This document shows positions 3,156 through 52,168 of a stretch of 64,000 nucleotides of DNA, piece by piece. Below the pieces are notes generated by a model that worked only from the letters and a program-made list of their open reading frames with translations, had not been told where the DNA came from and searched no databases. Source of the DNA: Peptococcaceae bacterium UBA4068 (GTDB lineage Bacteria; Bacillota; Dehalobacteriia; UBA4068); the NCBI GenBank assembly GCA_002382665.1, contig DFZA01000010.1:17589-81588 (forward strand), read 5' to 3'. A program made the position numbers and the translations under genes. The first letter of the stretch is position 1; each line of letters opens with the position of its first letter.

Positions 3156-3992
3156 CTAACTAATCTTCATTTGATATTGTTTGGGAGTAATACCGTAGGT
3201 TTTCCTAAACGCATTGATAAAATTAGAAATATTTTCATATCCCAAGTCAAAGGCCACATCCGTTACACTTTGATGTTCAATGATTTCTTTAGCTTTTTCC
3301 ATTTTTAAATGAGTTAAATATGCCTTGGGACTAATACCGATAATTTTCTTAAAATATTGGGAAAAATTCGCCTCCGACATTCCCAATTCATTGGCTACTT
3401 TTTTGATACTTATTGGTGACATATATTCTTCTTTCATTAATTTAATCGCCTGATTAATCGGATTGGCTATTTCATAACTCAGAACTTGGTTTGTACCTTT
3501 AATTTTAATAAGATAATATACAAGCTCCTGTGCTAATATATCCAATATATATTTAGTATCACGTTCGTTAGATGACATCATTTTACTTATTTTTGCAACA
3601 GTATTTTTTAGCTGCGGGCTAAGTTTTGAAAACAAGAATTTGTCTCCAATTAAGACATCATAATCAATTTTAAAATCCATGCTGACATTTTCGCTGACCT
3701 TTTTAATTAGCGTGTCGTTCAGCTCAAATACCAGCGCCTTTGTTGGCGTATTAATCAACATGTTTACGTACGATTCCTGAGGCATCAGTAAAAATTCTCC
3801 ACTGTTGTAATTTAAACTATCACCATTATTTATGAAGACTGTTTTTTCCCCTTCTAAAATCGTACATAATCTGGTATATTCATATGATTTATATACCCCC
3901 ACAAATTTTTCCGGAAATTCATAATAGAGTATTCTTAAATAATCGGTTTCCAACCTCCCCAGCATTTCATGTTCTCGGTTAAAATCTTTCAT
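3156..3992 (-). CDS. AraC family transcriptional regulator
   Basis: C-terminal double HTH (SIKKVANELGMSEANFSQYFKK ... VTDVAFDLGYENISNFINAFRKTYGITPKQY) and a cupin-like N-terminus. Start placed at ATG 3992 after GAGGTG. Confidence 0.9.
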   Translation of the reverse strand: MKDFNREHEMLGRLETDYLRILYYEFPEKFVGVYKSYEYTRLCTILEGEKTVFINNGDSLNYNSGEFLLMPQESYVNMLINTPTKALVFELNDTLIKKVSENVSMDFKIDYDVLIGDKFLFSKLSPQLKNTVAKISKMMSSNERDTKYILDILAQELVYYLIKIKGTNQVLSYEIANPINQAIKLMKEEYMSPISIKKVANELGMSEANFSQYFKKIIGISPKAYLTHLKMEKAKEIIEHQSVTDVAFDLGYENISNFINAFRKTYGITPKQYQMKIS

Positions 3993-4240
3993 TATTAAGG
4001 CACCTCTTTCCATCTAATATTTCATAATTAGGCACCCCTACTGACAATATACCACTTTTATTTAATGATTACAATTATTAATATTTGACTATTTTTTTAT
4101 AAAAAACGGTTAGATTTAAATTTATCAAATGATATTATTAAGGTGTACTAACAGCATTTTAATAATATTTTTTACTTTTGGCAAAACTTCAAAGTATCTG
4201 AAAATTATAAGCTTTAAATTAAACAAAGGAGGATGATAAC

Positions 4241-5716
4241 ATGACAAAGTATGTTGATAAGAGCTACCAACTATTCATTGATGGCAAATGGGTCAATGGC
4301 AGCGAGGGGAAAACCTTTAATGCCTATAATCCCTCAAACGGTGAATCGCTTGCAACCTGTATCAATGCAACAAAAGAAGATGTAGACCTGGCTGTAAAAG
4401 CCGCATGGAAGGCTTATGACAGTTGGAAAAATGTTAGCCCCCAGGAACGTTCGCGTATGCTTTTGAAAATTGCCGACCTGATTGATGAAAACGCAGAAAA
4501 AATTGCCATGGTTGAAACTCTTGATAACGGTAAGCCGATCAGAGAAACATTAAGTATCGATGTCCCGCTCAGTTCGGATCATTTTCGTTATTTTGCCGGA
4601 GCAATCAGAACAGCGGAAGGCGAAGCTGTTATGATTGATAAAGACACCATGAGTATTATATTAAGAGAGCCGCTTGGTGTCGTCGGTCAAATTGTTCCCT
4701 GGAATTTTCCGTTGCTAATGGCTGCCTGGAAACTGGCACCGGCGCTGGCAGCAGGCAACTGCATCGTTTTTAAACCGTCATCAACCACTTCGTTAAGTGT
4801 TCTTGAGCTTATGAAATTGATGAGTGAAGTTTTGCCTGCAGGTGTTGTCAATATTATTACCGGCAAAGGTTCAGAATCAGGCAACTATATGCTCGAGCAT
4901 GAAGGGTTCAGAAAACTCGCTTTTACAGGCTCAACCGATATTGGTTATACTGTTGCCGCTGCCGCGGCGAAAAAGATTATACCGGCCACACTGGAATTGG
5001 GTGGGAAATCCGCCAATATCTACTTCCCGGACGCCCCTTGGGAGAAAGTAATTGAAGGACTGCAAATAGGTATTTTATTTAATCAGGGTCAGGTATGCTG
5101 TGCAGGCTCGAGAGCATTTGTTCACGAAGATATCTACGATAAATTTATGGACGCCGCGGTTGCGGCCTTCGAAAAAGTCAAAGTCGGTCTACCCTGGGAG
5201 AAAGATACGCAAATGGGATCACAGGTCAACGAACACCAGATAAAGCAGATCTTAGATTATGTGGAAATTGGCAAACAGGAGGGCGCTAAAGTTGCCACAG
5301 GCGGCTACAGAATCACTGAAAAAGGTCTTGACAAAGGTTGCTTCATGAAGCCGACGATTCTTTCGAACGTTAACAATAAGATGCGCGTAGCACAGGAGGA
5401 AATATTTGGCCCTGTTGTTTGTATCATTAAATTTAAAGATGAAGAAGAAGCTATCAAAATGGCAAATGACAGCGAATACGGACTAGGCGGCGCCGTATGG
5501 ACTAAGGATATTAACCGGGCATTCCGTGTAGCCAGAGAAGTGGAAACAGGCAGGATGTGGATTAACAATTACAACAATTTGCCGGCTCATGCTCCGTTTG
5601 GCGGATATAAAAAATCCGGCATTGGCCGTGAAACGCATAAAGTAATACTTGATCACTATACCCAAATGAAAAATATTTTTATCAGTATGAGCGAAAACAA
5701 AGTCGGTTTATATTGA
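4241..5716 (+). CDS. NAD-dependent aldehyde dehydrogenase
   Basis: PWNFP, KPS, FTGST, LELGGKS (catalytic Glu), NQGQVCCAGS (catalytic Cys), EEIFGP, PFGGYKKSGIGRE. RBS AAGGAGG. Confidence 0.95.
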   Translation: MTKYVDKSYQLFIDGKWVNGSEGKTFNAYNPSNGESLATCINATKEDVDLAVKAAWKAYDSWKNVSPQERSRMLLKIADLIDENAEKIAMVETLDNGKPIRETLSIDVPLSSDHFRYFAGAIRTAEGEAVMIDKDTMSIILREPLGVVGQIVPWNFPLLMAAWKLAPALAAGNCIVFKPSSTTSLSVLELMKLMSEVLPAGVVNIITGKGSESGNYMLEHEGFRKLAFTGSTDIGYTVAAAAAKKIIPATLELGGKSANIYFPDAPWEKVIEGLQIGILFNQGQVCCAGSRAFVHEDIYDKFMDAAVAAFEKVKVGLPWEKDTQMGSQVNEHQIKQILDYVEIGKQEGAKVATGGYRITEKGLDKGCFMKPTILSNVNNKMRVAQEEIFGPVVCIIKFKDEEEAIKMANDSEYGLGGAVWTKDINRAFRVAREVETGRMWINNYNNLPAHAPFGGYKKSGIGRETHKVILDHYTQMKNIFISMSENKVGLY

Positions 5717-5749
5717 TTACTATTCACAATAATACAACTGAAATATGAA

Positions 5750-5779
5750 AAGAAGCTGTTACAAACAGCTTCTTTTCTT
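5750..5779 (+). terminator. Intrinsic terminator after the aldehyde dehydrogenase gene
   Basis: AAGAAGCTGT-TACAA-ACAGCTTCTT followed by a T-run. Confidence 0.8.
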
Positions 5780-5907
5780 TATATTATAAATCAGATCAAA
5801 TATTTATTTTCAAATTGATAGCTTCGGATCAATAAATCATTTATAATATGATTAAAATAATATTACTTTGGTATGTATTATATAAAATATTTAAAATTAG
5901 GAGTTTT

Positions 5908-7686
5908 ATGAAAATATCCGGAAATACTGATGGAATCGGCAAAGTTGTTCTGCAACAGATGGAAAATTGGCCTCTGCTGGAAATTACTTCGGATAATCTG
6001 ATCAGTCAACAGTTGGCTGAGGAAATGGCATCAATCAGCCGTCGGATTAACAGAGAAGTAGCTGTATACTTGGATCGTCGCGGTCAGATTGCAGCAATTG
6101 CCATAGGTAACAGCGGCGACATAACTTTACCTGAGTTACAGCAATCACGGCGGGCATCATCGCCATTGGCCGGGCTTCGTTGCGTGCATACCCACCCTTT
6201 GGGCAGCGGCGTATTAAGCAACGCCGATTTATCGGCGCTCAAGGCATCCGGGTTAGATTGCATCGTGGCGCTGGGGATTGACGATGATGCAGCAATTACT
6301 ACAGTAGGTATCGCTTTTGATCCGCAACAGCCAATGATTATGGATTGGTCTAAAGTAGTCGATCTTGATTGGCGCAGCCATCTGCCTTTGCGTAAACAAG
6401 TTGCTGAAGACGAACAAACAGCATCTATAGAAAAGGCGATATTAGTTGCGCTTGATTGCGGCGCGGGAAGCGAGAAAACGCAACGCTCCCTGGACGAGCT
6501 TGCTCAATTAGCCAAAACAGCGGGAATAGAAGTTGTCGGCTCGCTCTGGCAAAAAAGAAACCGACCGGAGACGGCGACTTATATCGGTATTGGCAAAGCT
6601 AAAGAAATTGCCATGTTAGCCCAGATCAAGCAAGCTGATCTGATTATTTTCGATGATGAACTGTCGCCGTCGGCAATAGCTACCTTGGCGCAAATAATTG
6701 ACCGTAAAATCATCGACCGCACCATGTTGATATTAGACATATTTGCTTCAAGAGCTATTAGTTACGAAGGTAAATTACAGGTAGAACTGGCGCAACTTCA
6801 TTATTTACTGCCGCGCTTAAACGGACAGGGTACTCAGCTTTCCCGACTCGGCGGCGGTATCGGTACCCGCGGCCCCGGCGAAACGATGTTGGAAATGGAC
6901 CGGCGCAAGATCCACGGACGTATAGATGACCTGCAAAAAGCTTTGGACAATATTTGCCGCGGGCGCAGCATTCAACGTCAGCGGCGGACAAAAGAACAGC
7001 TTTTCAAGGTAGCTTTAGTCGGTTATACCAATGCCGGTAAAAGCTCATTGCTCAACGCTTTGTCTGCTGCCGATACCGTCGCAGAGGACAAATTATTTGC
7101 TACGCTTGATCCGCTGACCAGACGCGTAGAATTAGCACAAGGTCAAGAAATACTTTTAAGCGATACTGTCGGTTTTATCCGCCGCCTGCCCCACCATTTA
7201 ATAGCGGCTTTTTCCGCTACTTTAGAGGAAGTTGCTGAAGCTGATCTGCTGCTGCATGTCATGGACGGATCGGCTAATGATATTGAGGAACAAGCCAGCG
7301 CTGTTATGAATGTAATAGTAAAATTAGGCGCAGCCGACAAACTGCAGATCAATGTCATCAATAAAGTTGATCTGCTGGAAAGCTCCGAGGCTCTGCAACG
7401 GCTGTTGAACATCTTTGAACCGGCTGTGGCGATTTCCGCCACCAGCGGGGATGGATTACAAAGTTTAAAAACAATCATTGCCGCACAAATGGCGGAACGG
7501 TTGGTTGCCATAGAGTATTTGTTGCCGCTTGACGGCAACGCAGTGGTGGCCGCCTGCTATGCGGAGGGCAAAGTTAAGCAAGTTGAATATACAGAACAGG
7601 GAATAAAAATCAGCGCGGAGATACCGCGCCGGCTTTTGGGTCAATTAACGAGGCAAGGAATAAGGTCACAATTAACAGGAGAATAG
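5908..7686 (+). CDS. hflX: GTPase HflX, long form with an N-terminal JAB/MPN-like extension
   Basis: GGGIGTRGPGET, G1 GYTNAGKSS, FATLD, G3 DTVGF, G4 NKVD. Start placed at ATG 5908 after AGGAG. Confidence 0.95.
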   Translation: MKISGNTDGIGKVVLQQMENWPLLEITSDNLISQQLAEEMASISRRINREVAVYLDRRGQIAAIAIGNSGDITLPELQQSRRASSPLAGLRCVHTHPLGSGVLSNADLSALKASGLDCIVALGIDDDAAITTVGIAFDPQQPMIMDWSKVVDLDWRSHLPLRKQVAEDEQTASIEKAILVALDCGAGSEKTQRSLDELAQLAKTAGIEVVGSLWQKRNRPETATYIGIGKAKEIAMLAQIKQADLIIFDDELSPSAIATLAQIIDRKIIDRTMLILDIFASRAISYEGKLQVELAQLHYLLPRLNGQGTQLSRLGGGIGTRGPGETMLEMDRRKIHGRIDDLQKALDNICRGRSIQRQRRTKEQLFKVALVGYTNAGKSSLLNALSAADTVAEDKLFATLDPLTRRVELAQGQEILLSDTVGFIRRLPHHLIAAFSATLEEVAEADLLLHVMDGSANDIEEQASAVMNVIVKLGAADKLQINVINKVDLLESSEALQRLLNIFEPAVAISATSGDGLQSLKTIIAAQMAERLVAIEYLLPLDGNAVVAACYAEGKVKQVEYTEQGIKISAEIPRRLLGQLTRQGIRSQLTGE

Positions 7687-7687
7687 C

Positions 7688-8488
7688 ATGAAATATTATG
7701 ATTATCATTGTCACAGCAATATTTCATTCGACGGACGCACACCGATTGCCGAAATTTGCGCTTCTGTAATTAAAGCCGGGGGCAGCGGAGTCACTTTTAC
7801 CGAACATATTGAGTGCGCTCAGGATTTTCCGCACGGAGGGCTGCTAGACTGGCAGCAATATCACAGTGAAATTGAACAAGCGCGCAAAATGTTTCCCGAC
7901 TTTTCAGTCGGCATGGGGGTTGAGGCTGGTTGGCAGCCGTTGATGCAGCCGCAAACGGAAGCCGCCGTCAAAGCCGGAAATTATGATTTTGTATTGGGGT
8001 CATTGCATTATATAGACGATCTGCCGATTTACAACGGCGCTTTTTCAGAGGGTAAAACTTTAAAGCAAGCTTACAGTGAATACTTCGCAGTTCTGCTGGC
8101 GGCGGTATCGGAAATGGTGGACTTCGATGTACTGGCACACATTGACTTAATCCGCCGTGACGAACAACTACCTAAAGTAGACTTCATTTACAACGATTAT
8201 GCCGATTATCTTGATCCCCTGCTTAAACAGTTGATTGAGCGCGGCAAAGGACTGGAGGTCAATACCGGCGGCTGGCGCTGCGGCTGCTACGAGCCCCATC
8301 CGGCGCCGGAAATACTACGCCGTTACAGGAAATTAGGCGGAGAGATCATCACCTGCGGCTCCGATTCGCATGTACCGCGCAGTCTGTTTTACCGAATCAA
8401 AGACGCTTACGGTCTGATCGAAGAAGCGGGGTTCAAATATATAAGTCTATTTGAGCACCGTCAACTTAAGCAAGTACCGTTTAAATAA
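7688..8488 (+). CDS. PHP-family histidinol-phosphatase (HisJ/HisK-like)
   Basis: DYHCHS, FTEH, DFVLGSLH, AHID, EVNT, GSDSH. Starts immediately after the hflX stop. Confidence 0.8.
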   Translation: MKYYDYHCHSNISFDGRTPIAEICASVIKAGGSGVTFTEHIECAQDFPHGGLLDWQQYHSEIEQARKMFPDFSVGMGVEAGWQPLMQPQTEAAVKAGNYDFVLGSLHYIDDLPIYNGAFSEGKTLKQAYSEYFAVLLAAVSEMVDFDVLAHIDLIRRDEQLPKVDFIYNDYADYLDPLLKQLIERGKGLEVNTGGWRCGCYEPHPAPEILRRYRKLGGEIITCGSDSHVPRSLFYRIKDAYGLIEEAGFKYISLFEHRQLKQVPFK

Positions 8489-11400
8489 TTGCCGGTACAA
8501 TAATAATTTGCTGCGTATCAATCATATAAAGATATGTCTCTTTGACCGGCAACTGCCAGATATCGGCGATGGCGCGGCGGTAATAGGCTAATTGTCTATA
8601 ATATGTTTCCACTATCTGCTGTTCGCTTTTGCCGCGGCTGCCGGTTTTATAATCAACCAATACCAGCCCGTCGTCTTCCCTAAACACAGCGTCGATCATG
8701 CCTTGTACAATCAGCATATCATCTGCAGCAGCACCCACAAGCTGCTCTCTCCCGGGTAGCGCATAGGTGAAAGGCACTTCCCTGTAAATTTGCTCTGCAG
8801 CAATCATCCGTTTGCCCAACGGCGAGGCAAATAAAGCGAAAATAGTGGCTGGATCTGTGATTTGGGCCTCCTCCGGCTTCAATATGCCCTGTTGGGCAAA
8901 CGCTTTGATCTGATCTGTAACAGCAGTAACACTTTGACAATTGGTAATATTGATTTTCTCCAATAGTAAATGATAAACAGTACCGCGTTGGTTAGCGGCT
9001 AATGATAACGTATCGCTTTCTTCCAACGCTATTTCTTCAATCAGGCAGCTATCTTGCCGGTCATCGGCAATGATTGCTGTCTTATTTAATTCGCTGACTG
9101 TCCATTTAATCGGATAGTTGCATAAATCGGCATAAGGATAACGGTAATCCATAATTTGCTTGATGACATCCGCATGTTTTGTTGGAGATAATGCTGTCTG
9201 AGCCGCAACAGCTTGCAAACGATTATCCATAACATCGGAATCTTCACTTTGTTGATCACCTATAAGCTGCTGACCAAAACGAATCTGCCAGCAACTGTTA
9301 TCGGTAACTACAGATTGACAATGACAATCAAAACTTGCCCTGATCTCTGTGGCATCAGGATGATACAGCAGCACCATCAGCAGCCATTGCAAATAACTGT
9401 CTTTGCATTGTAAAACGTAACGGCTGAAAATTTGTTGATCTGCAGACACCAGCAAGTCTTTAAAGTATTCTTCTAATTTATCCGGCGGTTTGCTAATTGT
9501 GCCAATTAATATCAATTGGCGGGCAGCACGAGTTACCGCCACATATAAGGTACGCAAATCTTCAGCGATCGCTTCCTGATGCAATTTATCTACAATAGCG
9601 GCACGTGTCAGAGAATCAAATTTTATTCTCCGTTCAACGTCGATATTTTTAGAGCCGACACCAAAATCTTTATGCCATACTACATCGGCTTTAGCTTGAG
9701 GAAACTGCAATTTGCGGCCCAGCGACGCCACAAAAACCACAGAAAATTGCAGGCCTTTGCTTTTGTGGATGCTCATGACCCTAACCACATCGGCGCTTTC
9801 ACTAAGCAGCCGTTCACTCTCATTGGTAGAGTTTTTCTCTAAAGCGTCATCAAGCAGGTTAATAAAACGGGATAACCCGCTGAAACTGCTTCGCTCATAT
9901 TCGCAGGCTTGTTGATGCAGCGCCCGTAAGTTGGCTTGTCTCTCCTGCCCGCCCGGCAAGGCGCCACTTAATTGATAAAAACCACGAGTCTGACAAAGCT
10001 GCCAAACCAAATCGGCTAAATGACCTTTACCTGCTTGCCTACGCCAGACTGTCAACTGTTCTAAAAAGGCAGCGGCTTTAACTGATAAGGCGTCATCGCC
10101 AGCCGATGTCTGCAGCAGGCAATCATAAAAGCTTTGCTGCTTATCCATTAAACGTATCTGCACCAATTCCTCACTGGCAAAACCGGCTATTGGCGAATAA
10201 AGCACGGCAGTAAAAGGTATATCCTGCAGAGGATTATCAATGATTTTCAAACAGGACACGATTAAAGCCACTTCGGGCCGGTCAAGATAGGAAGGTGATT
10301 TATCGGCAACCGCAGGTATGCCCATTGCTAACAGCTTTTTAACTATTTCCTGATCGATATTACGCGGGGAACGCAGCAATACGGCAAAATCACGGTAATG
10401 GTAATTATATTTATCTATTAATTGACGAACGCGTTGACCAATTAATTCCGCTTCCCGGCGCGCGTCTTTGATACCGGCGCTTTCGGTCAGGTCGTCGTTT
10501 TCGTTTATCTCCGCTGTATCATCTTCATTGTTTCCGTTCTGGTCTTCCCGAGGACGGTTAAGCATCCATAATTCACAAGGATCCCCCTGGATATCACTAC
10601 CGGCAGAAAGCTCAGCTTGTTGGTTATAATCAATCTCCGCCGTTTCTTCACTAAACAGGCGGCGGAAAATGTAATTGACGCAGTTAATGATATTACAACT
10701 GCTGCGATAATTGAGGTTTAAATCGATGCGGATACCACCCTGATTGGCAGCATACTGTTGATACTTGCCTAAGAAAAGGCCGGGCTCCGCCATACGAAAG
10801 CGGTAGATGCTCTGTTTGACATCGCCGACCGCAAAACAATTATTATTGTTTTGCAACAGTTGTAATATTTGTTCCTGCACCGGATTGATGTCCTGATATT
10901 CGTCTATCAAGATTTCTGCAAATTGGCTTCTTAGGCCTTCCGCCACACCGTTTTCTTCGTCTTCTAAAACTTGCAGGCAAAAATGTTCCATATCACTAAA
11001 ATCTACCAAATTGCGGCGGCGTTTTTCCTGGGTTAAGGCCCTGTCATAAGCTATAGTCAGTTGACAAAGACCGGATATCAGCACAGCCGCTTCGCGCAGA
11101 TCGGCTAATTGTCTTTGGGGAGAACGACGGCAATACTTTTTTTGGAGTCCCGTAATAATCTCCTTGCCGGTTTTTCGTAAAGAAGCAAAGCGCTCTTTAT
11201 CATTTATCGGGGTTTGTTTATCCATAGGCGACATTCTGTCAAACTTGCAGTTAGCAAGATTAATCAACAGTTGCTGCCAACTGCCGATCTGTAACAAAGA
11301 AACAATCACTTCGTCTTCACCTAACAGTTGTTGCCTGCAGCGTTCAGCTATATTGGGGGTAGAAAGCGCCAACCTAAAATAACTATGCGCTTGTTCGATA

Positions 11401-47385: not shown

Positions 47386-48462
47386 ATCGCCAAAAAACTC
47401 TTTGCCGAATTTACCGAAGCCCGTCAGCTGGGTTTCCTCCATGCCAAAAAAATCAAAGATAATGGCGGTCTGATCGCCGGATGTTTTTGTGCTTTCGCAC
47501 CACGGGAGCTGCTAGCTGCCGCCGGATTTACTACGGTCAATATCTGTAACGCTGCCAAAGAAAATGAATTAGCAGCCATTGCTGATCAAATACCCCCAGG
47601 CATCTGTTCGGCTGTAAAAGCTACCTACGGTTTAGCGTTAACCGATAGATGCCCTTATATCCATTTTTCAGATATATTAATTGGCGAAGACATCTGCCCG
47701 GGACGGATGCAAATTTATCAACTTTTTAAAAAATTAAAAAACGTTTATATTATCCAACTGCCCCAAGGCAGTAATGCCGATGCTGAAATGGAAGCAGAAT
47801 TACGTAAGTTAGCTTCCTTTTTAACAGACCGTTTTAATTGCCGGATAGATGATCAAGCGTTAAGGCAGCAAATAATCAAGAGCAATCAACAAATGCGGCT
47901 GCAGAATGAATTGGCGATGCTTTGCCGCGCCAACCCGCCGCGTCTCGGCGGATATAATTTAGCAAAAATACTTGACGGCGCCGAATTTATATTTGACCAA
48001 CAGGACAAATTACAAAAACTTAATTCGGTAATAGACCAAGCCTCGGTAGCACCTAACAGTAGCGAAAAGCGCGTTGTCGTCAGCGGATGCGGGTTAAACG
48101 GATTAATCGATAAAATAATCAAGCCTGTCGAAGATTTAGGCGCACATATTGTAGCTTTTGACAATTGCCGCTGGGGCCTGTCGCCCTTGTGCGACGAGAA
48201 TATTGCCCAGACTAACCCCTGGCAAGCATTGGCAAAAAAATACAACAATATCAACTGTCTGCAACGTCAAAACGATTCTATAGCCAAATTGATTGCAGAC
48301 ACAAATGCCCAGGCACTGATCAATGTCGGCCTTAGCTGCTGTTCTGTTTGCCAGATTGCGTATGATCATAAACAAATACCGACTCTTAATATCTTAACCG
48401 ATTATACGGACGATGATAAAGACAAAATTAAAGATAGATTAGTTGCATTTTTGGCAAATTAA
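47386..48462 (+). CDS. 2-hydroxyacyl-CoA dehydratase-family / double-cubane-cluster protein (YjiM-like), probable ATC start
   Basis: The frame is open from 47383, well upstream of the tracked ATG at 47707. It reads FAEFTEARQLGF...GCFCAFAPRELLAAAG..NIC...GICSAVKATYG...DRCPY..FSDILIGEDICPG, matching the YjiM N-terminus. GGAGGG lies 7 nt before ATC 47386. Confidence 0.8.
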   Translation: MAKKLFAEFTEARQLGFLHAKKIKDNGGLIAGCFCAFAPRELLAAAGFTTVNICNAAKENELAAIADQIPPGICSAVKATYGLALTDRCPYIHFSDILIGEDICPGRMQIYQLFKKLKNVYIIQLPQGSNADAEMEAELRKLASFLTDRFNCRIDDQALRQQIIKSNQQMRLQNELAMLCRANPPRLGGYNLAKILDGAEFIFDQQDKLQKLNSVIDQASVAPNSSEKRVVVSGCGLNGLIDKIIKPVEDLGAHIVAFDNCRWGLSPLCDENIAQTNPWQALAKKYNNINCLQRQNDSIAKLIADTNAQALINVGLSCCSVCQIAYDHKQIPTLNILTDYTDDDKDKIKDRLVAFLAN

Positions 48463-48465
48463 TCC

Positions 48466-48494
48466 TTGCCAATTTTCTAGAATCGTATTATACT
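48466..48494 (+). promoter_or_regulatory. sigmaA promoter upstream of the cobalamin riboswitch
   Basis: TTGCCA-N17-TATACT. Confidence 0.7.
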
Positions 48495-48499
48495 TCAAG

Positions 48500-48662
48500 A
48501 GAAAAGTGAATACTTTGCGATATGGTATAAGGGAAGAGGGGTGAAAATCCCCCACAACAGCCATTACTGTAATTGCCGACGCGAGAACAACACGCCATTG
48601 TCTTGATTTATGATGAGAAGGCGTTCTCAAGGTTGAAGCATGAGTCAGGAGACCTGCCCTAT
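48500..48662 (+). ncRNA. Cobalamin (B12) riboswitch
   Basis: In the expected order: AAGGGAA, GGTGAAAATCC, CAGCC, CTGTAA, GCCATTG, GAGAAGGC, and the B12 box GAGTCAGGAGACCTGCC. Confidence 0.92.
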
Positions 48663-48715
48663 TGCTTGCACGAACATTATTCCTGGCGTGGGGGATAGCG
48701 GCTTTTTTTATTGTT

Positions 48716-48745
48716 AAAACAAGCTCCCCAATGGGAGCTTGTTTT
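48716..48745 (+). terminator. Leader terminator hairpin (riboswitch expression platform)
   Basis: AAAACAAGCTCCC-CAAT-GGGAGCTTGTTTT just upstream of the GGAGGAG RBS. A weaker hairpin plus T7 run lies at about 48678-48709. Confidence 0.75.
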
Positions 48746-48760
48746 ATTGGAGGAGTACCG

Positions 48761-49429
48761 ATGCAACGAAAAATTTTAATATCAATAATTATTTTAGTGG
48801 TATTTTCAGCATTAATATTATGCTGCTGTCATAACGGTTCCGGGAAAGCCGCCAGTACCAAAGAAAGCACCGCAACTGTTTCGCAGCAGGAACAAACTGC
48901 CAATACTGATCAAAAAACAATAGATAATCAACAACAAAATCAGAATGCGGAACAGCAACCAATAAAGCAGACGACTACAAGTAATAACAAAACGCAGCAG
49001 CAGACCAATCAAACAACAACGACAACAAAGACCTCTAGTGCTAAAACAGACAAATTAACCTGTACGCTTAGTGTTTCCTGTGCCAGTATTTTTGACCATC
49101 TCGACAGCTTTAACAGCGACAAATTAGAGCTAGTGCCGGAAGATGGCATAGTATTCTATAAAAAAGATTGCGAATTTACCAAAGGCGAGAGCGTATTTGA
49201 CGTTTTAAAACGAGAACTGTTAGCTGCCGAGATTCACTTTGAATTTTCCACCACGCCGGTCTACAATACCAATTACGTTGAAGCTATTGATAATATTTAC
49301 GAATTTGACGGCGGCGACTTTACCGGCTGGAAATACAAAGTTAACGGTACTTTTCCCGGTTGTGGCTGTTCGTTATATAAAGTCAGCGACGGCGACGTTA
49401 TCGAATGGGTTTATACTTTTAATTATTGA
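48761..49429 (+). CDS. DUF4430 (transcobalamin-like C-terminal domain) lipoprotein, putative corrinoid-binding
   Basis: Lipoprotein-type signal ending LILCCC; Q/T/N linker; GESVFDVL...YVEAIDNIYEFDGG..TGWKYKVNG..P..G...Y....GDVIEWVYT. Start placed at ATG 48761 after GGAGGAG. Confidence 0.85.
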   Translation: MQRKILISIIILVVFSALILCCCHNGSGKAASTKESTATVSQQEQTANTDQKTIDNQQQNQNAEQQPIKQTTTSNNKTQQQTNQTTTTTKTSSAKTDKLTCTLSVSCASIFDHLDSFNSDKLELVPEDGIVFYKKDCEFTKGESVFDVLKRELLAAEIHFEFSTTPVYNTNYVEAIDNIYEFDGGDFTGWKYKVNGTFPGCGCSLYKVSDGDVIEWVYTFNY

Positions 49430-49455
49430 TTTTTAATATGGAAGGGGTTTAGAGA

Positions 49456-51897
49456 ATGTTCAACAAAAAAAGTAACTGTAAAAATGTCTTTGTTTTATTG
49501 CTGCTGGCACTTCTATTGTTGCTGGCGGCAACCACAACGGTATTGGCGGCAACCGTCAGTCCGCAGGTAGCAATGGATGACACCGTAAATAATTACTACA
49601 TTACAGCCAGAGACCGGACTATGGGAGATTGGGAGGAACTGCTTGCGCTCTATACCGCCCAGACAATCGGCGGCAGTGATATTGACTTAGCTGCTTTTGA
49701 TCAGCAGATCACTTATTCTTCAGACAGCACTGCAGTAATAGACTCTTTAATCAACGGTAATATGGCCGATGCTTCAACTTATGCAGCTGATTTGGTAGAC
49801 GGCACTACCTTGATCAGCGCCGGCTATGCCTACACTGACGCATACTCAATGATCGCAATAGAGGCTTATAACCGTGCTGCTGCCGAAACATCTGATTATC
49901 AGCCGCTACCATATGATAAAGATACAGCTATATCAGCTTTGATTGATACAATGGAAAGTGACGGCGGATTCGGCTACGGAGTCTACAGCAGTGGTAGCAG
50001 TGATGTTGACAATACTGCAATGGCTTTGATCGCGCTTTCGCTTTACCAGGACAGCGACGCCCCTGATTGTTCACCCAACGTGTCCCAGGCAATCACCTCC
50101 GGACTGGCTTATCTTCAGACTGTACAAGCGGCAAACGGCGGTTTCAACTATTCATATACTTATGATGACCAACTGTTTTCGAGCTACAGCGGCAACTCTA
50201 CAGCAGTGGTAATCTGGGCAATCATTGCCAATGGCGGCAATCCCACAGCTGCGGAGTGGACGACCGAAGGCGGTGATACCCCTGTTTCCGCTCTAATCAC
50301 CAATTCTTATATCAGCGGCGGCGGTTTCGGCGATTACGGTGCAGCAGACTATTTTTGTTCCAAACAAGCTCTAATTGCCGTAACCGAGGTAACTGCCTTA
50401 AACAAGCTCAGCAGCCCCTCTCCTGAACAAATAAAAGACTGCTCAATATTTAATACCCTATCCCTTAACCAAGACATGCTCCACCCCGTGCATTTGCTGG
50501 TCTATGACGGCAGCGGCATCAGTCAAAAATCATTATCCGTTCCTCATGGCAATTCGCTTAGCAATGCGTTAAGCGCCGCCGGTATTGATCCCAGCGGATT
50601 GAAATGTTACTTCAACGGCAGTACAATTACTGATTTGAGTACTACAATAACCGGCGAAAGTTATCTTACCCTGGCTCCGGAGGGTATTACCCATATCGGC
50701 CAATTTTATCAAGGCAGCACAAAAACTACATCCGCCACTATTGAAGTCGGACATACAGCCAATTTCATTCTTAAAAGTATAGCGGTTGATGACGCCACCC
50801 AGACAGAAACTACCAGCGCCAACATCGCTCTCAGTAATGATATCACTACCGACGCCAACGGCCATTTTTCTTTCAGCAGCAACAGTAGCGGCAGCTATAA
50901 TATCACCTCCGCCACAACAGGTTATATCACTCCAACATTAACCATTACTGTAATCCCCCAAAACAACGACAGCAGCCAATATATTACACTCAATGTCAGT
51001 GATAGCGGTGGACATATCAATAATTATAATAATGACAGTATTATCTATAACTCCCAACAGACGCCATTGTCGCTATTACTGCAATATAAAGAAAATGTAG
51101 TACTTCAAGGTAGCAGCTATGTTGTGTCAATTGACGGCTGGAGCGCCGGTGACGGCGGCGCCAACAGCGGCTGGCTCTATAAAGTCAAACGCGGCGGTAA
51201 AATGCTTTACCCAACGGTACCGGCCGCTTCTTACGCACTGCAATCCGGTGATATTGTATATTGGTATTACACATATAATTATACTAACGATCAAGGCTCT
51301 TCAAACTGGAGCGGTACGACAACAACCACCGACACCGTTGACGGCAAACAATTTAATGATGTTAACTCAGAATATTGGGCCGCCGCATATATTAACGATT
51401 TGAGCAGCCGTAATATTTTCGGCGGATATCCGGACGGCAGTTTCCGTCCCGAACAAAATATCAGCCGTAGCGAATTTATCGCCCTGTTGGCGCGCATAAG
51501 CGGAGAGACACTGCCGGAATATAACAATACATTCGCTGATGTATCCTCAAATAGTTGGTATGCTGCTGATGTTGCCTGGGCCGTTGGCACAGGAATCACA
51601 AACGGCATCGACAGCAAACACTTTTCTCCCGATACCCCGATCAGCCGTCAGGATATGGCTGTGATGCTTGCCCGTTTTATCGCTCATATGCAATACCAAA
51701 TCACATCGCAAAACGATACCAATACTTTAAGCGATAGTGATTTAATCAACGATTATGCCAGATCTGCAGTCTTACAAATGCAGCAAGCCGGTATCATCAA
51801 CGGTTATACAGACAATAGTTTTCGGCCTTGCGATACCGCTTCCAGAGCGGAAGTTGCAAAAATATTAAGCGTATTACTTACTAAAATCTCAAAATAA
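49456..51897 (+). CDS. S-layer-anchored protein: alpha/alpha-barrel (prenyltransferase-like repeats) + DUF4430 + 3 SLH
   Basis: Signal peptide; DGGFG..SDVDNTAMALIAL, LAYL..VQAANGGF, NSTAVVIWAI repeats; YVVSIDG...SGWLYKV...GDIVYWYYT; three SLH repeats (FNDV..YWA...GYPDGSFRP...ISRSEF, and two more). Confidence 0.88.
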   Translation: MFNKKSNCKNVFVLLLLALLLLLAATTTVLAATVSPQVAMDDTVNNYYITARDRTMGDWEELLALYTAQTIGGSDIDLAAFDQQITYSSDSTAVIDSLINGNMADASTYAADLVDGTTLISAGYAYTDAYSMIAIEAYNRAAAETSDYQPLPYDKDTAISALIDTMESDGGFGYGVYSSGSSDVDNTAMALIALSLYQDSDAPDCSPNVSQAITSGLAYLQTVQAANGGFNYSYTYDDQLFSSYSGNSTAVVIWAIIANGGNPTAAEWTTEGGDTPVSALITNSYISGGGFGDYGAADYFCSKQALIAVTEVTALNKLSSPSPEQIKDCSIFNTLSLNQDMLHPVHLLVYDGSGISQKSLSVPHGNSLSNALSAAGIDPSGLKCYFNGSTITDLSTTITGESYLTLAPEGITHIGQFYQGSTKTTSATIEVGHTANFILKSIAVDDATQTETTSANIALSNDITTDANGHFSFSSNSSGSYNITSATTGYITPTLTITVIPQNNDSSQYITLNVSDSGGHINNYNNDSIIYNSQQTPLSLLLQYKENVVLQGSSYVVSIDGWSAGDGGANSGWLYKVKRGGKMLYPTVPAASYALQSGDIVYWYYTYNYTNDQGSSNWSGTTTTTDTVDGKQFNDVNSEYWAAAYINDLSSRNIFGGYPDGSFRPEQNISRSEFIALLARISGETLPEYNNTFADVSSNSWYAADVAWAVGTGITNGIDSKHFSPDTPISRQDMAVMLARFIAHMQYQITSQNDTNTLSDSDLINDYARSAVLQMQQAGIINGYTDNSFRPCDTASRAEVAKILSVLLTKISK

Positions 51898-51921
51898 TTA
51901 TCATAATCAATCGCAAACATA

Positions 51922-51962
51922 TTAAAAACCAACTGGCACATAATGTAGCAGTTGGTTTTTTA
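51922..51962. terminator. Bidirectional terminator
   Basis: TAAAAACCAACTG-GCACATAATGTAG-CAGTTGGTTTTTTA between convergent genes. Confidence 0.8.
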
Positions 51963-51967
51963 ATATG

Positions 51968-52168
51968 TTATTTTTGCTGTTCTTTAAGCACATTACGCAA
52001 CTTAGCCAAGATTACTTTTTTTTCGATCATAGCTCTTTCAATAGTTTCAATCATCGGATCATCCTCGTTACTGATCCGTCGTTGTAAATCGTCTTTATTA
52101 TTTCTAATCGACTTTTGTAATACTTGCTGCAAGCGATCTATTTCCCGGCTGGTAAGCTCAATTTTCAT
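51968..52168 (-). CDS. Small helical hypothetical protein, 66 aa
   Basis: MKIELTSREIDRLQQVLQKS...; AAGGGAG RBS; overlaps the end of the upstream gene. Confidence 0.65.
   Translation of the reverse strand: MKIELTSREIDRLQQVLQKSIRNNKDDLQRRISNEDDPMIETIERAMIEKKVILAKLRNVLKEQQK

Follow-up and report, generated by a model that had tools for sequence, protein, structure and literature searches.

A two-gene operon that is preceded by a cobalamin (B12) riboswitch and holds no transporter gene has been confirmed in the 64,000-nucleotide stretch of DNA analysed here (the window, to which all positions refer unless a contig is named). Most probably (about 70%), this operon encodes the extracellular half of the system by which a corrinoid-auxotrophic member of the Clostridia with a single membrane takes up its corrinoid, the ECF importer being encoded elsewhere in the genome. 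The initial annotation had proposed such a surface-capture relay, and the proposal agrees with the predicted folds of both proteins, the presence of a single B12 riboswitch in the genome, the apparent auxotrophy of the organism, a candidate transporter on another contig (C13) and the co-operonic arrangement found in relatives; the order of hand-off is one that we infer.

Operon and RNA leader

Each element previously listed for this operon, namely a promoter, a cobalamin riboswitch, a leader terminator, two DUF4430 genes and a closing terminator, was recovered on re-analysis, and all but the last, which is bidirectional, lie on the plus strand. The sigma-70-type promoter (TTGCCA-17 nt-TATACT, 48466-48494) matches at 10 of 12 positions, a quality that occurs in this region at chance frequency; both hexamers are identical in the orthologous locus L004 (75% identity), where the spacer differs, and the promoter ends about 10 nt 5' of the aptamer, which is the right position. 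The aptamer itself (48506-48675), including the B12 box GAGUCAGGAGACCUGCC, matches the Rfam Cobalamin model RF00174 over all of its positions (1-189 of 189) with E 5e-17 and 76.3 bits (gathering score 31.5), and its orthologue in L004 scores 83.8 bits. A scan of the entire genome (2.04 Mb, 98.6% complete) gives no other RF00174 match.

Downstream of the aptamer, folding predicts an expression platform that begins with a P13-like hairpin (48677-48698), whose loop UGGC could pair with GCCA of the aptamer loop CAGCCA to form a kissing loop. This hairpin is likewise predicted in L004, where two pair changes, one of them compensatory (C-G to U-A) and the other from G-U to A-U, lend it support that is weak with two sequences. 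An alternative hairpin (48689-48730), which may act as an anti-terminator, is the minimum-energy fold (-13.6 kcal/mol) of a transcript ending at 48731, when the 3' strand of the terminator has not yet been made; its 5' strand overlaps the 3' side of the P13-like hairpin in a common GGGGG, and it also uses the 5' strand of the terminator. The intrinsic terminator of the leader (48715-48749) has a 14-bp stem, the loop CAAU and a U-rich tail, with its hairpin (48715-48746) at -21.3 kcal/mol (z -6.6; none of 200 shuffles folding as well), and is kept in L004; it is followed by GGAGGAG, which lies 5 nt 5' of the ATG at 48761. When corrinoid is plentiful, the riboswitch would stabilise the P13-like hairpin, which would block the anti-terminator and so end transcription at the leader terminator. 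The strand shared by the P13-like hairpin and the anti-terminator counts for this switch logic, and the folding predictions with the two sequences point to a classical OFF architecture.

At its 3' end, the operon is closed by a bidirectional intrinsic terminator (51916-51969) that also serves a convergent minus-strand gene; it folds at -24.0 kcal/mol (z -7.4) on the plus strand and at -23.8 kcal/mol (z -7.7) on the minus strand. No transporter gene was found in the operon or among the flanking genes examined, which encode an HGD-D-like protein, PadR and PspC upstream and, on the opposite strand downstream, a hypothetical protein, an SH3 protein, a glycosyltransferase and MurJ, none of them of the ECF or BtuFCD kind. 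The operon is conserved together with its riboswitch in a metagenome-assembled genome of the same genus.

Two transcobalamin-like surface proteins

The first gene, ORF1 (48761-49429, 222 aa), encodes a membrane anchor or probable lipoprotein signal (aa 1-24), a disordered, Q/T/N-rich tether (aa 26-95) and a DUF4430 domain (PF14478; aa 97-222, E 1.6e-16). Of its earlier description as a DUF4430 lipoprotein, the domain assignment holds, while the second part is only probable: the N-terminal hydrophobic helix ends in LILCCC, a non-canonical lipobox, and alignment places canonical lipoboxes (ICGC, FTGC, ATAC and LAGC) in four orthologues. In the AlphaFold2 (AF2) model, pLDDT exceeds 90 in the DUF4430 domain and is below 50 in the tether. 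The modelled domain has a transcobalamin-beta-like fold, as had been suggested for DUF4430, with a TM-score of 0.77 to 5NO0 and 5NP4 (the human transcobalamin beta domain, cyanocobalamin-bound in 5NP4); the 19 best-ranked Foldseek hits comprise full-length or beta-domain structures of transcobalamin, intrinsic factor and haptocorrin as well as 3U7Z, a DUF4430 crystal structure, and apart from 3U7Z no chain outside the transcobalamin family matches below E 1e-3.

The second gene, ORF2 (49456-51897, 813 aa), encodes the expected DUF4430-SLH protein, with a signal peptide (aa 1-31), a predicted alpha/alpha toroid (aa ~36-335), a beta-grasp domain (aa ~342-407), an Ig-like domain of the CarboxypepD_reg type (aa ~413-516), DUF4430 (aa ~528-606, E 6.5e-7) and three SLH repeats (aa ~628-813, E 3.5e-35). 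In its AF2 model (aa 1-615; pLDDT 83.3, pTM 0.71), ORF2 is a complete transcobalamin analogue, since it has the alpha/alpha toroid, which had been overlooked in the initial annotation. All of the 14 best PDB matches in Foldseek, with E 1.3e-8 to 1.6e-4, belong to transcobalamin, haptocorrin or intrinsic factor. The alignments to full-length transcobalamin have a high rmsd (about 16 A), as the two halves of ORF2 are set apart by two additional domains. The toroid has sub-threshold Pfam scores only (E 0.0055 and 0.048); homologues of ORF2 combine PF00432 or PF13243 with PF14478 and SLH, and its orthologues share 89% and 75% identity. Among the matches listed for the window proteins at E up to 0.01, there is none to Pfam Cobalamin_bind, and no published experiment showing corrinoid binding by a bacterial DUF4430 or toroid protein was found in the literature.

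Corrinoid economy and a candidate importer

No genes for corrin-ring synthesis (just a single TP_methylase gene is present) and no FecCD/BtuC-type permease were found in the genome, yet it encodes users of B12, namely the alpha and beta subunits of methylmalonyl-CoA mutase, a corrinoid protein with the DxHxxG motif and, as candidates assigned from sequence, two B12-binding radical-SAM proteins. This combination suggests that the organism depends on imported corrinoid and is a corrinoid auxotroph; the only trace of corrinoid tailoring found is one weak, isolated CobS-like gene. The absence of an Omp85 protein from the genome, together with the presence of a CsaB-like pyruvyl transferase, fits a cell with a single membrane and SLH anchoring.

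The transporter, which had been expected elsewhere in the genome, has a candidate in an ECF locus on contig C13 (C13:92177-95805), beside metF and lacking a riboswitch, which consists of a CbiQ-family EcfT gene (C13:94840-95805) and a fused EcfA-EcfA'-CbrT-like gene with two ATPase domains and an S domain (C13:92177-94867). The alignment of the S domain with membrane chain A of ECF-CbrT (PDB 6FNP; 182 aa), which we take to be CbrT, runs from end to end (E 3.4e-8), and in this structure-database comparison no chain of FolT, RibU or another S component came within E 1; the scores of the S domain against folate-family and riboflavin S-component models are weak and below cut-off. The transporter thus appears to resemble CbrT, and a folate-type substrate in this genome is conceivable, given the weak folate-family score, the metF neighbour and the missing riboswitch. 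The remaining S components resemble RibU, a 4HZU-type S component or YkoE, or belong to CbiM, and one of the ABC_cobalt family has no PDB relative.

Arrangement in related genomes

Across 14 related genomes, orthologues of the transporter genes stand with the same types of binder in one operon behind a B12 riboswitch in five (G005, G022, G026, G017 and G013, the last with the riboswitch placed differently). In G005 and G022, the riboswitch is followed by a toroid-SLH protein, an ORF1-like DUF4430 protein, EcfT and a fused EcfAA'-CbrT-like protein, and G026 keeps this order but starts with a DUF4430-SLH protein. G017 carries two riboswitches, of which one precedes the ECF block and the other a giant binder (1378 aa), and in G013 the ECF block is followed by the riboswitch and a 1322-aa toroid/DUF4430/SLH protein. 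The riboswitch precedes ECF genes alone in G002, G019 and G003, and lone giant DUF4430/SLH proteins with a B12 riboswitch and no adjacent transporter gene are found in G001 (2952 aa) and in G005 and G022 (about 2070 aa). Small ORF1-type DUF4430 proteins lie directly 5' of EcfT in five related genomes, the split alpha/beta layout recurs in G005, G022 and G017, and DUF4430 is present in 60 of the 74 genomes of the class.

The ECF genes of the relatives match the C13 genes alone in this genome (E 1e-71 to 1e-105, the next best match having 1e-14). Because these orthologous genes share a riboswitch-led operon with the binders, the window would hold the surface half of a split operon, and the layout appears to be a lineage-specific split of an operon type for which Burroughs et al. 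(2007; PMC1796856) predicted B12 scavenging, and is less unusual than the initial annotation had implied.

Proposed mechanism and alternatives

In the proposed mechanism, ORF2 would be secreted and held on a wall polymer through its three SLH repeats, and would bind corrinoid between the toroid and a beta-grasp domain (either DUF4430 or the unassigned one that follows the toroid) in the manner of transcobalamin. ORF1 would contribute a second transcobalamin-beta-like domain on a flexible, membrane-anchored tether of about 70 residues and pass the ligand to a dedicated ECF transporter made of EcfT and the fused EcfA-EcfA'-CbrT-like protein encoded on C13, so that corrinoid would move from the SLH protein to the lipoprotein and then to the transporter.

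Alternatively, the binders could form a surface store or competitive sink that hoards corrinoid or denies it to others, with no direct hand-off to a dedicated transporter. The operon is indeed separate from the ECF genes here, both physically and in its regulation, the lone giant proteins of G001, G005 and G022 have riboswitches of their own, the switch-led binder genes of G017 and G013 come after the ECF block, and BtuG of Bacteroides may compete for B12 at the cell surface. However, the position of small ORF1-type genes directly 5' of EcfT in five relatives suggests that they work together with the importer, a switch of the OFF type suits a role in uptake, and hoarding and delivery can coexist. 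A pure store or sink is an unlikely explanation.

It is less likely still that the ligand of the proteins is not B12 itself but only incomplete corrinoids or a different tetrapyrrole, for instance heme. Such ligands are suggested by the single homologous operon that has been studied, lsa1836-1840 of Latilactobacillus sakei, which encodes an ECF transporter along with transcobalamin-alpha-like and beta-like proteins and has been linked to heme uptake, by the wording "B12 or its precursors" and the other ligands in archaea that are allowed by Burroughs et al. (PMC1796856), and by the transport of cobinamide by ECF-CbrT. On the other hand, the cobalamin riboswitch senses intracellular corrinoid, which makes corrinoid the economical reading, the genome combines B12-dependent enzymes with a lack of corrin-ring synthesis genes, and the L. 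sakei proposal rests partly on docking. The least probable alternative, which we regard as very improbable, is that the riboswitch is an ON switch or non-regulatory, so that abundant B12 would go with production of the binders, which might buffer an excess or sense it. A 9-nt leader segment, GUGGGGGAU, is the complement of part of helix P3 in the aptamer (its 3' strand), and this pairing features in the lowest-energy fold predicted for the leader as a whole, which could in principle link an unfolded aptamer to termination; this complementarity is lost in L004, where the segment reads AUGGGAGAU with two mismatches, whereas the P13-like hairpin and its overlap with the anti-terminator are retained, in a platform of the classical OFF type.

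Comparison with known systems

The closest described class is that of Burroughs, Balaji, Iyer and Aravind (2007, Biol Direct; PMC1796856), who predicted B12 scavenging for surface proteins combining SLBB (DUF4430, PF14478) with a toroid, encoded as paired paralogues with CbiO/CbiQ neighbours in hosts that lack B12 synthesis. The proteins described here share with that class a secreted or surface-bound location, an SLBB domain C-terminal to an alpha/alpha toroid, Ig-fold domains, a host without B12 synthesis and a link to transporter genes of the CbiQ/CbiO (ECF) type. They differ in that the ECF genes lie outside the operon, on another contig beside metF, that a B12 riboswitch, which is not discussed in PMC1796856, rules the binders alone, and that SLH repeats take the place of the Gram-positive anchor motif named in that paper.

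In L. sakei, the ECF-like operon lsa1836-1840, assigned to heme uptake (bioRxiv 10.1101/864751), likewise joins an ECF transporter to extracellular toroid (alpha) and DUF4430-type (beta) proteins; the available text of that preprint makes no mention of a B12 riboswitch. It also differs from the present system in that here alpha and beta are fused in ORF2 and ORF1 supplies an extra beta domain. The candidate importer resembles ECF-CbrT of Lactobacillus delbrueckii (Santos et al., 2018; PMC5997447; 6FNP) in its S domain, its CbiQ-family EcfT and its two ATPase domains. CbrT of L. delbrueckii uses a shared ECF module and has no described extracellular binder (PMC5997447), as opposed to the C13 transporter, whose S component is fused to both ATPases, which has its own EcfT and which goes with two surface binders (genetically in relatives, putatively here).

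The mammalian transcobalamin, intrinsic factor and haptocorrin, which are the best structural matches to the models of ORF1 and ORF2, share the alpha6/alpha6-type toroid and the beta-grasp domain, although sequence identity is 10-20%, two extra domains lie between the toroid and DUF4430, and the bacterial protein is predicted to be wall-anchored rather than soluble. The earlier description of the system as a monoderm analogue of BtuG-type capture stands for its role and not for its fold. BtuG is a beta-propeller, and BtuG/BtuH of Bacteroides, which are unrelated in fold, act at an outer membrane and feed the TonB-dependent BtuB, as opposed to a candidate ECF importer in a cell lacking Omp85; the Bacteroides proteins capture B12 at the surface ahead of a membrane transporter, a role that the present proteins would share, and both loci are riboswitch-controlled.

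Organization of the operon and its riboswitch

The sole Rfam match in the whole window is a cobalamin riboswitch (RF00174) at 48506-48675 on the plus strand, which covers model positions 1-189 of 189 with 76.3 bits against a gathering score of 31.5 (E 5e-17), and in which GAGUCAGGAGACCUGCC is aligned by the covariance model to the B12 box consensus AGCCAGGAGACCuGCC. Just upstream of this aptamer lies a promoter-like TTGCCA-17-TATACT (48466-48494, +); both hexamers are identical in the orthologous locus L004 (75% identity) with a differing spacer, and such sites occur in the region at chance level. Past the aptamer, the leader has a terminator with a 14-bp hairpin and a U-rich tail (48715-48749, +; -21.3 kcal/mol, z -6.6), 3' of which GGAGGAG precedes the ATG at 48761 that opens ORF1 (48761-49429, +; 222 aa), and a gap of 26 nt separates ORF1 from ORF2 (49456-51897, +; 813 aa). 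A bidirectional terminator (51916-51969, about -24 kcal/mol on either strand) parts the two genes from convergent minus-strand genes for a hypothetical protein, an SH3 protein, a glycosyltransferase and MurJ, while the upstream neighbours encode an HGD-D-like protein, PadR and PspC; no transporter gene is present among these flanking genes within the window. The initial annotation had described a B12-riboswitch operon of surface-protein genes only, and this make-up is borne out by the ORFs, the terminators, the neighbouring genes and the full-length match to the Rfam Cobalamin model, a comparison it had suggested.

Counted from the first common start codon, the HGD-D-like ORF (47707-48462, +) is 251 aa long, and its Pfam match is confined to model positions 71-339; its L004 orthologue has 379 aa, and the N-terminal part of the window ORF seemingly has no ATG, GTG or TTG start.

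Between aptamer and terminator, a weak P13-like hairpin (48677-48698) carries in its loop a UGGC complementary to the GCCA of the aptamer loop CAGCCA, which we take to be the position where known cobalamin riboswitches make the L5-L13 kissing loop. The GGGGG that forms the 3' strand of this hairpin doubles as the 5' strand in an alternative hairpin, an anti-terminator (48689-48730), which consumes the 5' strand of the terminator and is the minimum-energy fold (-13.6 kcal/mol) of the growing transcript as long as the terminator's 3' strand is yet to be transcribed; folding predicts that anti-terminator and leader terminator are mutually exclusive. Ligand binding would stabilise the kissing loop and the P13-like hairpin, the anti-terminator would be blocked, and transcription would end. 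The leader was compared between two sequences, the window and L004 (the P0002 contig begins inside ORF1), and L004 retains the P13-like hairpin and the terminator with one compensatory pair change. Terminator, anti-terminator and P13-like hairpin make up an expression platform that links the aptamer to gene expression, and the folding predictions and two sequences suggest a classical OFF arrangement.

Two other pairings were weighed. Perfect complementarity over 9 nt exists between leader positions 48689-48697, GUGGGGGAU, and the 3' strand of aptamer helix P3 at 48548-48556, AUCCCCCAC, and this pairing dominates the minimum-energy fold of the whole leader; as an anti-aptamer element it was nevertheless rejected because the L004 orthologue has lost it, and the complementarity is probably fortuitous. 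An alternative kissing loop, CACGCC/GGCGUG, shows an apparent compensatory change, but its GCC is already paired in the Rfam consensus structure, and on the two sequences the GCCA-UGGC contact with the aptamer loop is preferred. When RNA runs containing the stretch were looked for, it was found in DNA metagenome runs only.

Domain architecture of the two proteins

ORF1 matches DUF4430 (PF14478) with 60.9 bits against a cut-off of 23.8 (E 1.6e-16). The structure model, for which seven orthologues were used, comprises an N-terminal helix, a Q/T/N-rich stretch predicted with low confidence (aa 26-95) and a well-defined domain (aa 97-222, pLDDT above 90). All 19 significant PDB fold matches of this domain are transcobalamin, intrinsic factor, haptocorrin or 3U7Z, the last of which is a DUF4430 crystal structure. 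Against the isolated beta domain of human transcobalamin (5NO0, apo, and 5NP4, with cyanocobalamin), aa 97-222 give a TM score of 0.77, and against 3U7Z one of 0.76; the next match, an unrelated one, comes at E 0.1. As modelled, the domain has the beta-grasp fold and can be superposed on its transcobalamin counterpart, with predicted strands at 160-165 and 170-176 following a helix at 145-155, which would be compatible with the clade-specific beta-hairpin insert of Burroughs. When the lipobox pattern [LVI][ASTVI][GAS]C was applied to the end of the signal helix, ORF1 proved non-canonical, ending in LILCCC with Cys at -1; four orthologues carry the canonical ICGC, FTGC, ATAC and LAGC, and two others are without any Cys. 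A lipid anchor is likely though not certain, and tethering to the membrane in some form is certain.

For ORF2 the DUF4430 match is lower, 30.2 bits against the same cut-off of 23.8, and the model of aa 1-615 (26-sequence alignment, pLDDT 83.3, pTM 0.71) resolves a signal peptide at the N-terminus, an all-helical toroid domain at aa ~36-335, a small beta-grasp domain without Pfam match at aa ~342-407, an Ig-like CarboxypepD_reg-type sandwich at aa ~413-516 and DUF4430 at aa ~528-606; C-terminal to the modelled part, Pfam recognizes three SLH repeats (E 3.5e-35). The label "DUF4430-SLH protein" given in the initial annotation is correct for both of the domains it names, but incomplete, leaving out the toroid, beta-grasp and Ig-like domains. 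Among the PDB matches of the model, transcobalamin, haptocorrin and intrinsic factor fill the first 14 places (E 1.3e-8 to 1.6e-4), and terpene cyclases and other alpha/alpha toroids rank after them. Pfam scores for the toroid stay below threshold, but homologues carry Prenyltrans or SQHop_cyclase alongside DUF4430 and SLH. Among 1.84 billion representative proteins searched, aa 1-615 has 490 relatives at E <=1e-3, many of them multidomain proteins of 1000-3000 aa. PF01122 (Cobalamin_bind) is not listed for ORF2 at E up to 0.01, nor for its N-terminal part at E up to 5, and superposition on the transcobalamin family gives an rmsd of ~16 A over 400-466 columns, with two extra domains between toroid and DUF4430. 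The model thus portrays ORF2 as a wall-anchored protein with the two-domain design of eukaryotic B12 carriers, a likeness to transcobalamin, intrinsic factor and haptocorrin that lies in predicted structure and architecture and not in sequence-level membership.

The SLH repeats of such proteins bind a wall-polymer ligand for which a pyruvyl transferase is needed, and a CsaB-like PS_pyruv_trans gene is found at C6:91575-92420 of the host genome (E 2.2e-39). Together with the three SLH repeats, this gene marks ORF2 as a predicted SLH-anchored wall protein.

Corrinoid economy of the host

The host genome (2.04 Mb, 19 contigs, 98.6% complete) comes from a hydrocarbon metagenome assembly; among named relatives, the MAG "Peptococcaceae bacterium UBA5752" is nearest. 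The genome encodes methylmalonyl-CoA mutase, with both of its subunits, a DxHxxG-containing corrinoid protein of 214 aa and, as judged from sequence, two radical-SAM proteins that are candidates for B12 binding. Corrin-ring synthesis takes several tetrapyrrole methylases, and the genome has a single tetrapyrrole methylase gene. Searches of the genome for Omp85 and for a FecCD/BtuC permease found neither, the latter meaning that BtuFCD is absent. The host therefore appears to be a single-membrane bacterium, seemingly unable to make the corrin ring, that must import corrinoids, since B12 enzymes are present and corrin-ring synthesis genes were not seen. Exactly one B12 riboswitch occurs in the genome, that of the window; with no BtuFCD and no corrin-ring synthesis genes seen, this makes the functional assignment unusually unambiguous.

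An isolated and very divergent CobS-like membrane protein is encoded at C14:137612-138412 (-), adjoining IMP dehydrogenase and with no cob genes nearby. It reaches E 8.9e-14 in Pfam, but 22 bits against an NCBIfam cut-off of 252, and so weak and isolated a match was not accepted as proof of nucleotide-loop assembly.

A probable partner importer

BtuFCD was dismissed as the corrinoid importer for want of a FecCD/BtuC permease in the genome. All loci of the six EcfT (CbiQ-family) genes in the host genome were examined, and five modules are unlike a B12 importer. The EcfT at C14:422k belongs to a housekeeping module adjoining ribosomal protein genes, that of C18 to a YkoE-like module matching PDB 5EDL, and that of C6 to CbiMQO; the EcfT at C14:333k lies ~6-7 kb from two 4HZU-type S components (C14:340-341k), and the cluster at C14:180k has an ABC_cobalt-family S component without PDB relative, CbrT included, and no riboswitch. 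A further S component, at C14:204528, is RibU.

The sixth locus, C13:92177-95805, consists of an EcfT that matches PF02361 and an 896-aa protein in which two ATPase domains are fused to an S component; the N-terminal 560 aa of this fusion contain two Walker-A motifs, read from the sequence. The S domain aligns with residues 6-177 of the 182-aa membrane chain A of 6FNP (E 3.4e-8), which we take to be CbrT, and no other S-component structure in the PDB falls within E 1. The 6FNP entry is the vitamin B12 importer ECF-CbrT of L. delbrueckii (PMC5997447). By sequence, the C13 genes appear to be an ECF-CbrT-type set with a CbrT-related S component, EcfT and two ATPase domains. They lie directly downstream of metF, and no riboswitch was found when one was looked for at this locus.

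Two observations concern neighbouring features. The long 5' leader of the metF-EcfT-EcfAA'CbrT-like operon contains an 88-nt unit repeated 1.9 times at 90% identity (L020 8691-8856; ~96690-96855 of C13), which matches no Rfam family and in which each unit, judged by eye, has two hairpin-forming stretches; it could be a tandem regulatory RNA or a small repeat element. The C14:180k cluster (C14:179577-187007; L021, ~3578-11007) is a second dedicated ECF cluster, with genes for a lipoprotein, the ABC_cobalt-family S component, a phosphodiesterase-like protein, a secreted 545-aa protein with an SLH repeat, a membrane-anchored Oxidored_molyb-like protein, EcfA, EcfA', EcfT and a MobB-like P-loop protein, and may import a pterin or a molybdenum-cofactor-type compound.

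Riboswitch-linked operons in related genomes

B12 riboswitches were located in 40 related genomes, and 21 of them, in 14 genomes, were read with their downstream genes. In G005 and G022 the riboswitch is followed by a toroid-SLH protein (541 aa, without beta domain), an ORF1-like DUF4430 protein, EcfT and a fused EcfAA'-CbrT-like gene; G026 has the same order of ORF1-like, EcfT and fused gene behind a DUF4430-SLH protein (647 aa). In G017 a first riboswitch precedes a toroid protein (359 aa), an ORF1-like protein, EcfT, ATPases and a CbrT-like protein, and a second, after this ECF block, precedes a 1378-aa multi-DUF4430 SLH protein, while in G013 ORF1-like, EcfT, ATPase and CbrT-like genes without a switch of their own are followed by a riboswitch and a 1322-aa toroid/DUF4430/SLH protein. 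The riboswitch is followed by ECF genes only in G002, G019 and G003, and by BtuFCD-like genes in G004, G007, G021 and G011. G001, of the same genus as the host, has the gene order of the window operon and a second riboswitch before a 2952-aa DUF4430/SLH giant. This second riboswitch is lacking from the host genome; it lies in L051 1932-12771 (G001:C7), where two small ORFs stand between it and the 2952-aa protein, which combines DUF4430 domains with a cadherin-like domain and three SLH repeats. Of 74 genomes in the host's class, 60 have DUF4430, and so do 29 of the 33 genera.

The riboswitch-linked ECF genes of the relatives match only the C13 genes in the host (E 1e-71 to 1e-105), the next-best host EcfT reaching E 1e-14, and unique orthologues of the C13 genes directly follow a B12 riboswitch in G002, G019, G003, G005, G022, G026 and G017. 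The C13 transporter has its genomic link to B12 through its orthologues and not at its own locus. The window operon is therefore the surface portion of an operon that sister genera have kept whole, and in the host the importer half has moved behind metF and has lost B12 control. The initial annotation had placed the transporter elsewhere in the genome and proposed a search for it and for further B12 riboswitches; no second riboswitch was found, and the CbrT-like ECF genes at C13:92177-95805, supported by their riboswitch-linked orthologues, answer to its expectation. An ORF1-type protein is encoded immediately upstream of EcfT in five genomes, and this position is the best evidence that it is the component working with the importer.

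In G022, G005 and G017 (L066 8940-11493, L058 3778-6334 and L063 15553-17409), a toroid protein without beta domain is directly followed by an ORF1-type protein and then by ECF genes, an arrangement that looks like a two-chain "split transcobalamin".

Proposed function

Our reading, to which we give a probability of about 0.7, is that ORF1 and ORF2 together capture corrinoids for the C13 ECF importer and are controlled by an OFF switch; its most secure part would be corrinoid binding and its least secure the order of hand-off. The interpretation put forward in the initial annotation is upheld in its main points by the folds, the sole riboswitch, the C13 importer and the operons of the relatives. 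A specific relay by beta-domain exchange is speculative and rather unlikely as it stands: ORF2 would hold the corrinoid clamped by its toroid on one side and its own beta-grasp domain on the other, the tethered ORF1 beta domain would dock on the ORF2 toroid, oust the ORF2 beta domain and take the ligand, and ORF1, on its tether of ~70 residues, would then swing back and load the CbrT-like S component. Relatives in which a beta-less toroid protein is always followed by an ORF1-type protein would represent a simpler form, a two-chain transcobalamin, and the host's genus would have uncoupled a B12-set supply of binders from a transporter not under a B12 riboswitch.

Were the relay true, it would provide a true substrate-delivery protein for an ECF transporter. 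The locus bears on how single-membrane bacteria capture scarce B12-type cofactors outside the cell, and is a compact and cleanly bounded example with one switch and two genes, where comparison with relatives pins down the transporter served and shows that binder and importer can be regulated separately. While the system will not surprise the specialist, its value is as a small candidate test case for a first biochemical proof of corrinoid binding by bacterial transcobalamin-like proteins.

Comparison with known systems

The initial annotation had drawn a parallel with BtuG, a beta-propeller lipoprotein that works with the TonB-dependent BtuB. The parallel is one of function only, since neither the ORF1 nor the ORF2 model contains a beta-propeller, none occurs among their significant PDB fold matches, and the host has no outer-membrane assembly gene (Omp85). 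ECF transporters are, to our knowledge, generally portrayed as operating with no extracytoplasmic binding protein, and we know of no characterised importer of single-membrane bacteria other than ECF-CbrT, which was studied without a surface helper.

The closest precedent is the transcobalamin-like clade of the SLBB superfamily defined by Burroughs, Balaji, Iyer and Aravind (2007; PMC1796856), whose surface-located proteins have signal peptides and carry SLBB in fusion with Ig domains and with an alpha/alpha toroid, the latter on either side, and whose genes usually stand alongside CbiO-/CbiQ-like genes in hosts without B12 synthesis; a role in scavenging B12 or its precursors was proposed (PMC1796856). 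A literature search found no published corrinoid-binding test of any bacterial DUF4430 member, and for the one homologous operon that has been studied, in L. sakei, heme uptake was the assigned role, with Lsa1840 and Lsa1839 proposed as a two-chain split transcobalamin (bioRxiv 10.1101/864751). The window locus agrees with the 2007 class feature by feature and differs in its explicit riboswitch control, its SLH anchoring and the location of its binders apart from the importer. The protein class and its likely role were thus already predicted in 2007, and the locus opens no new category, its modest twist being the split regulation of binders and importer.
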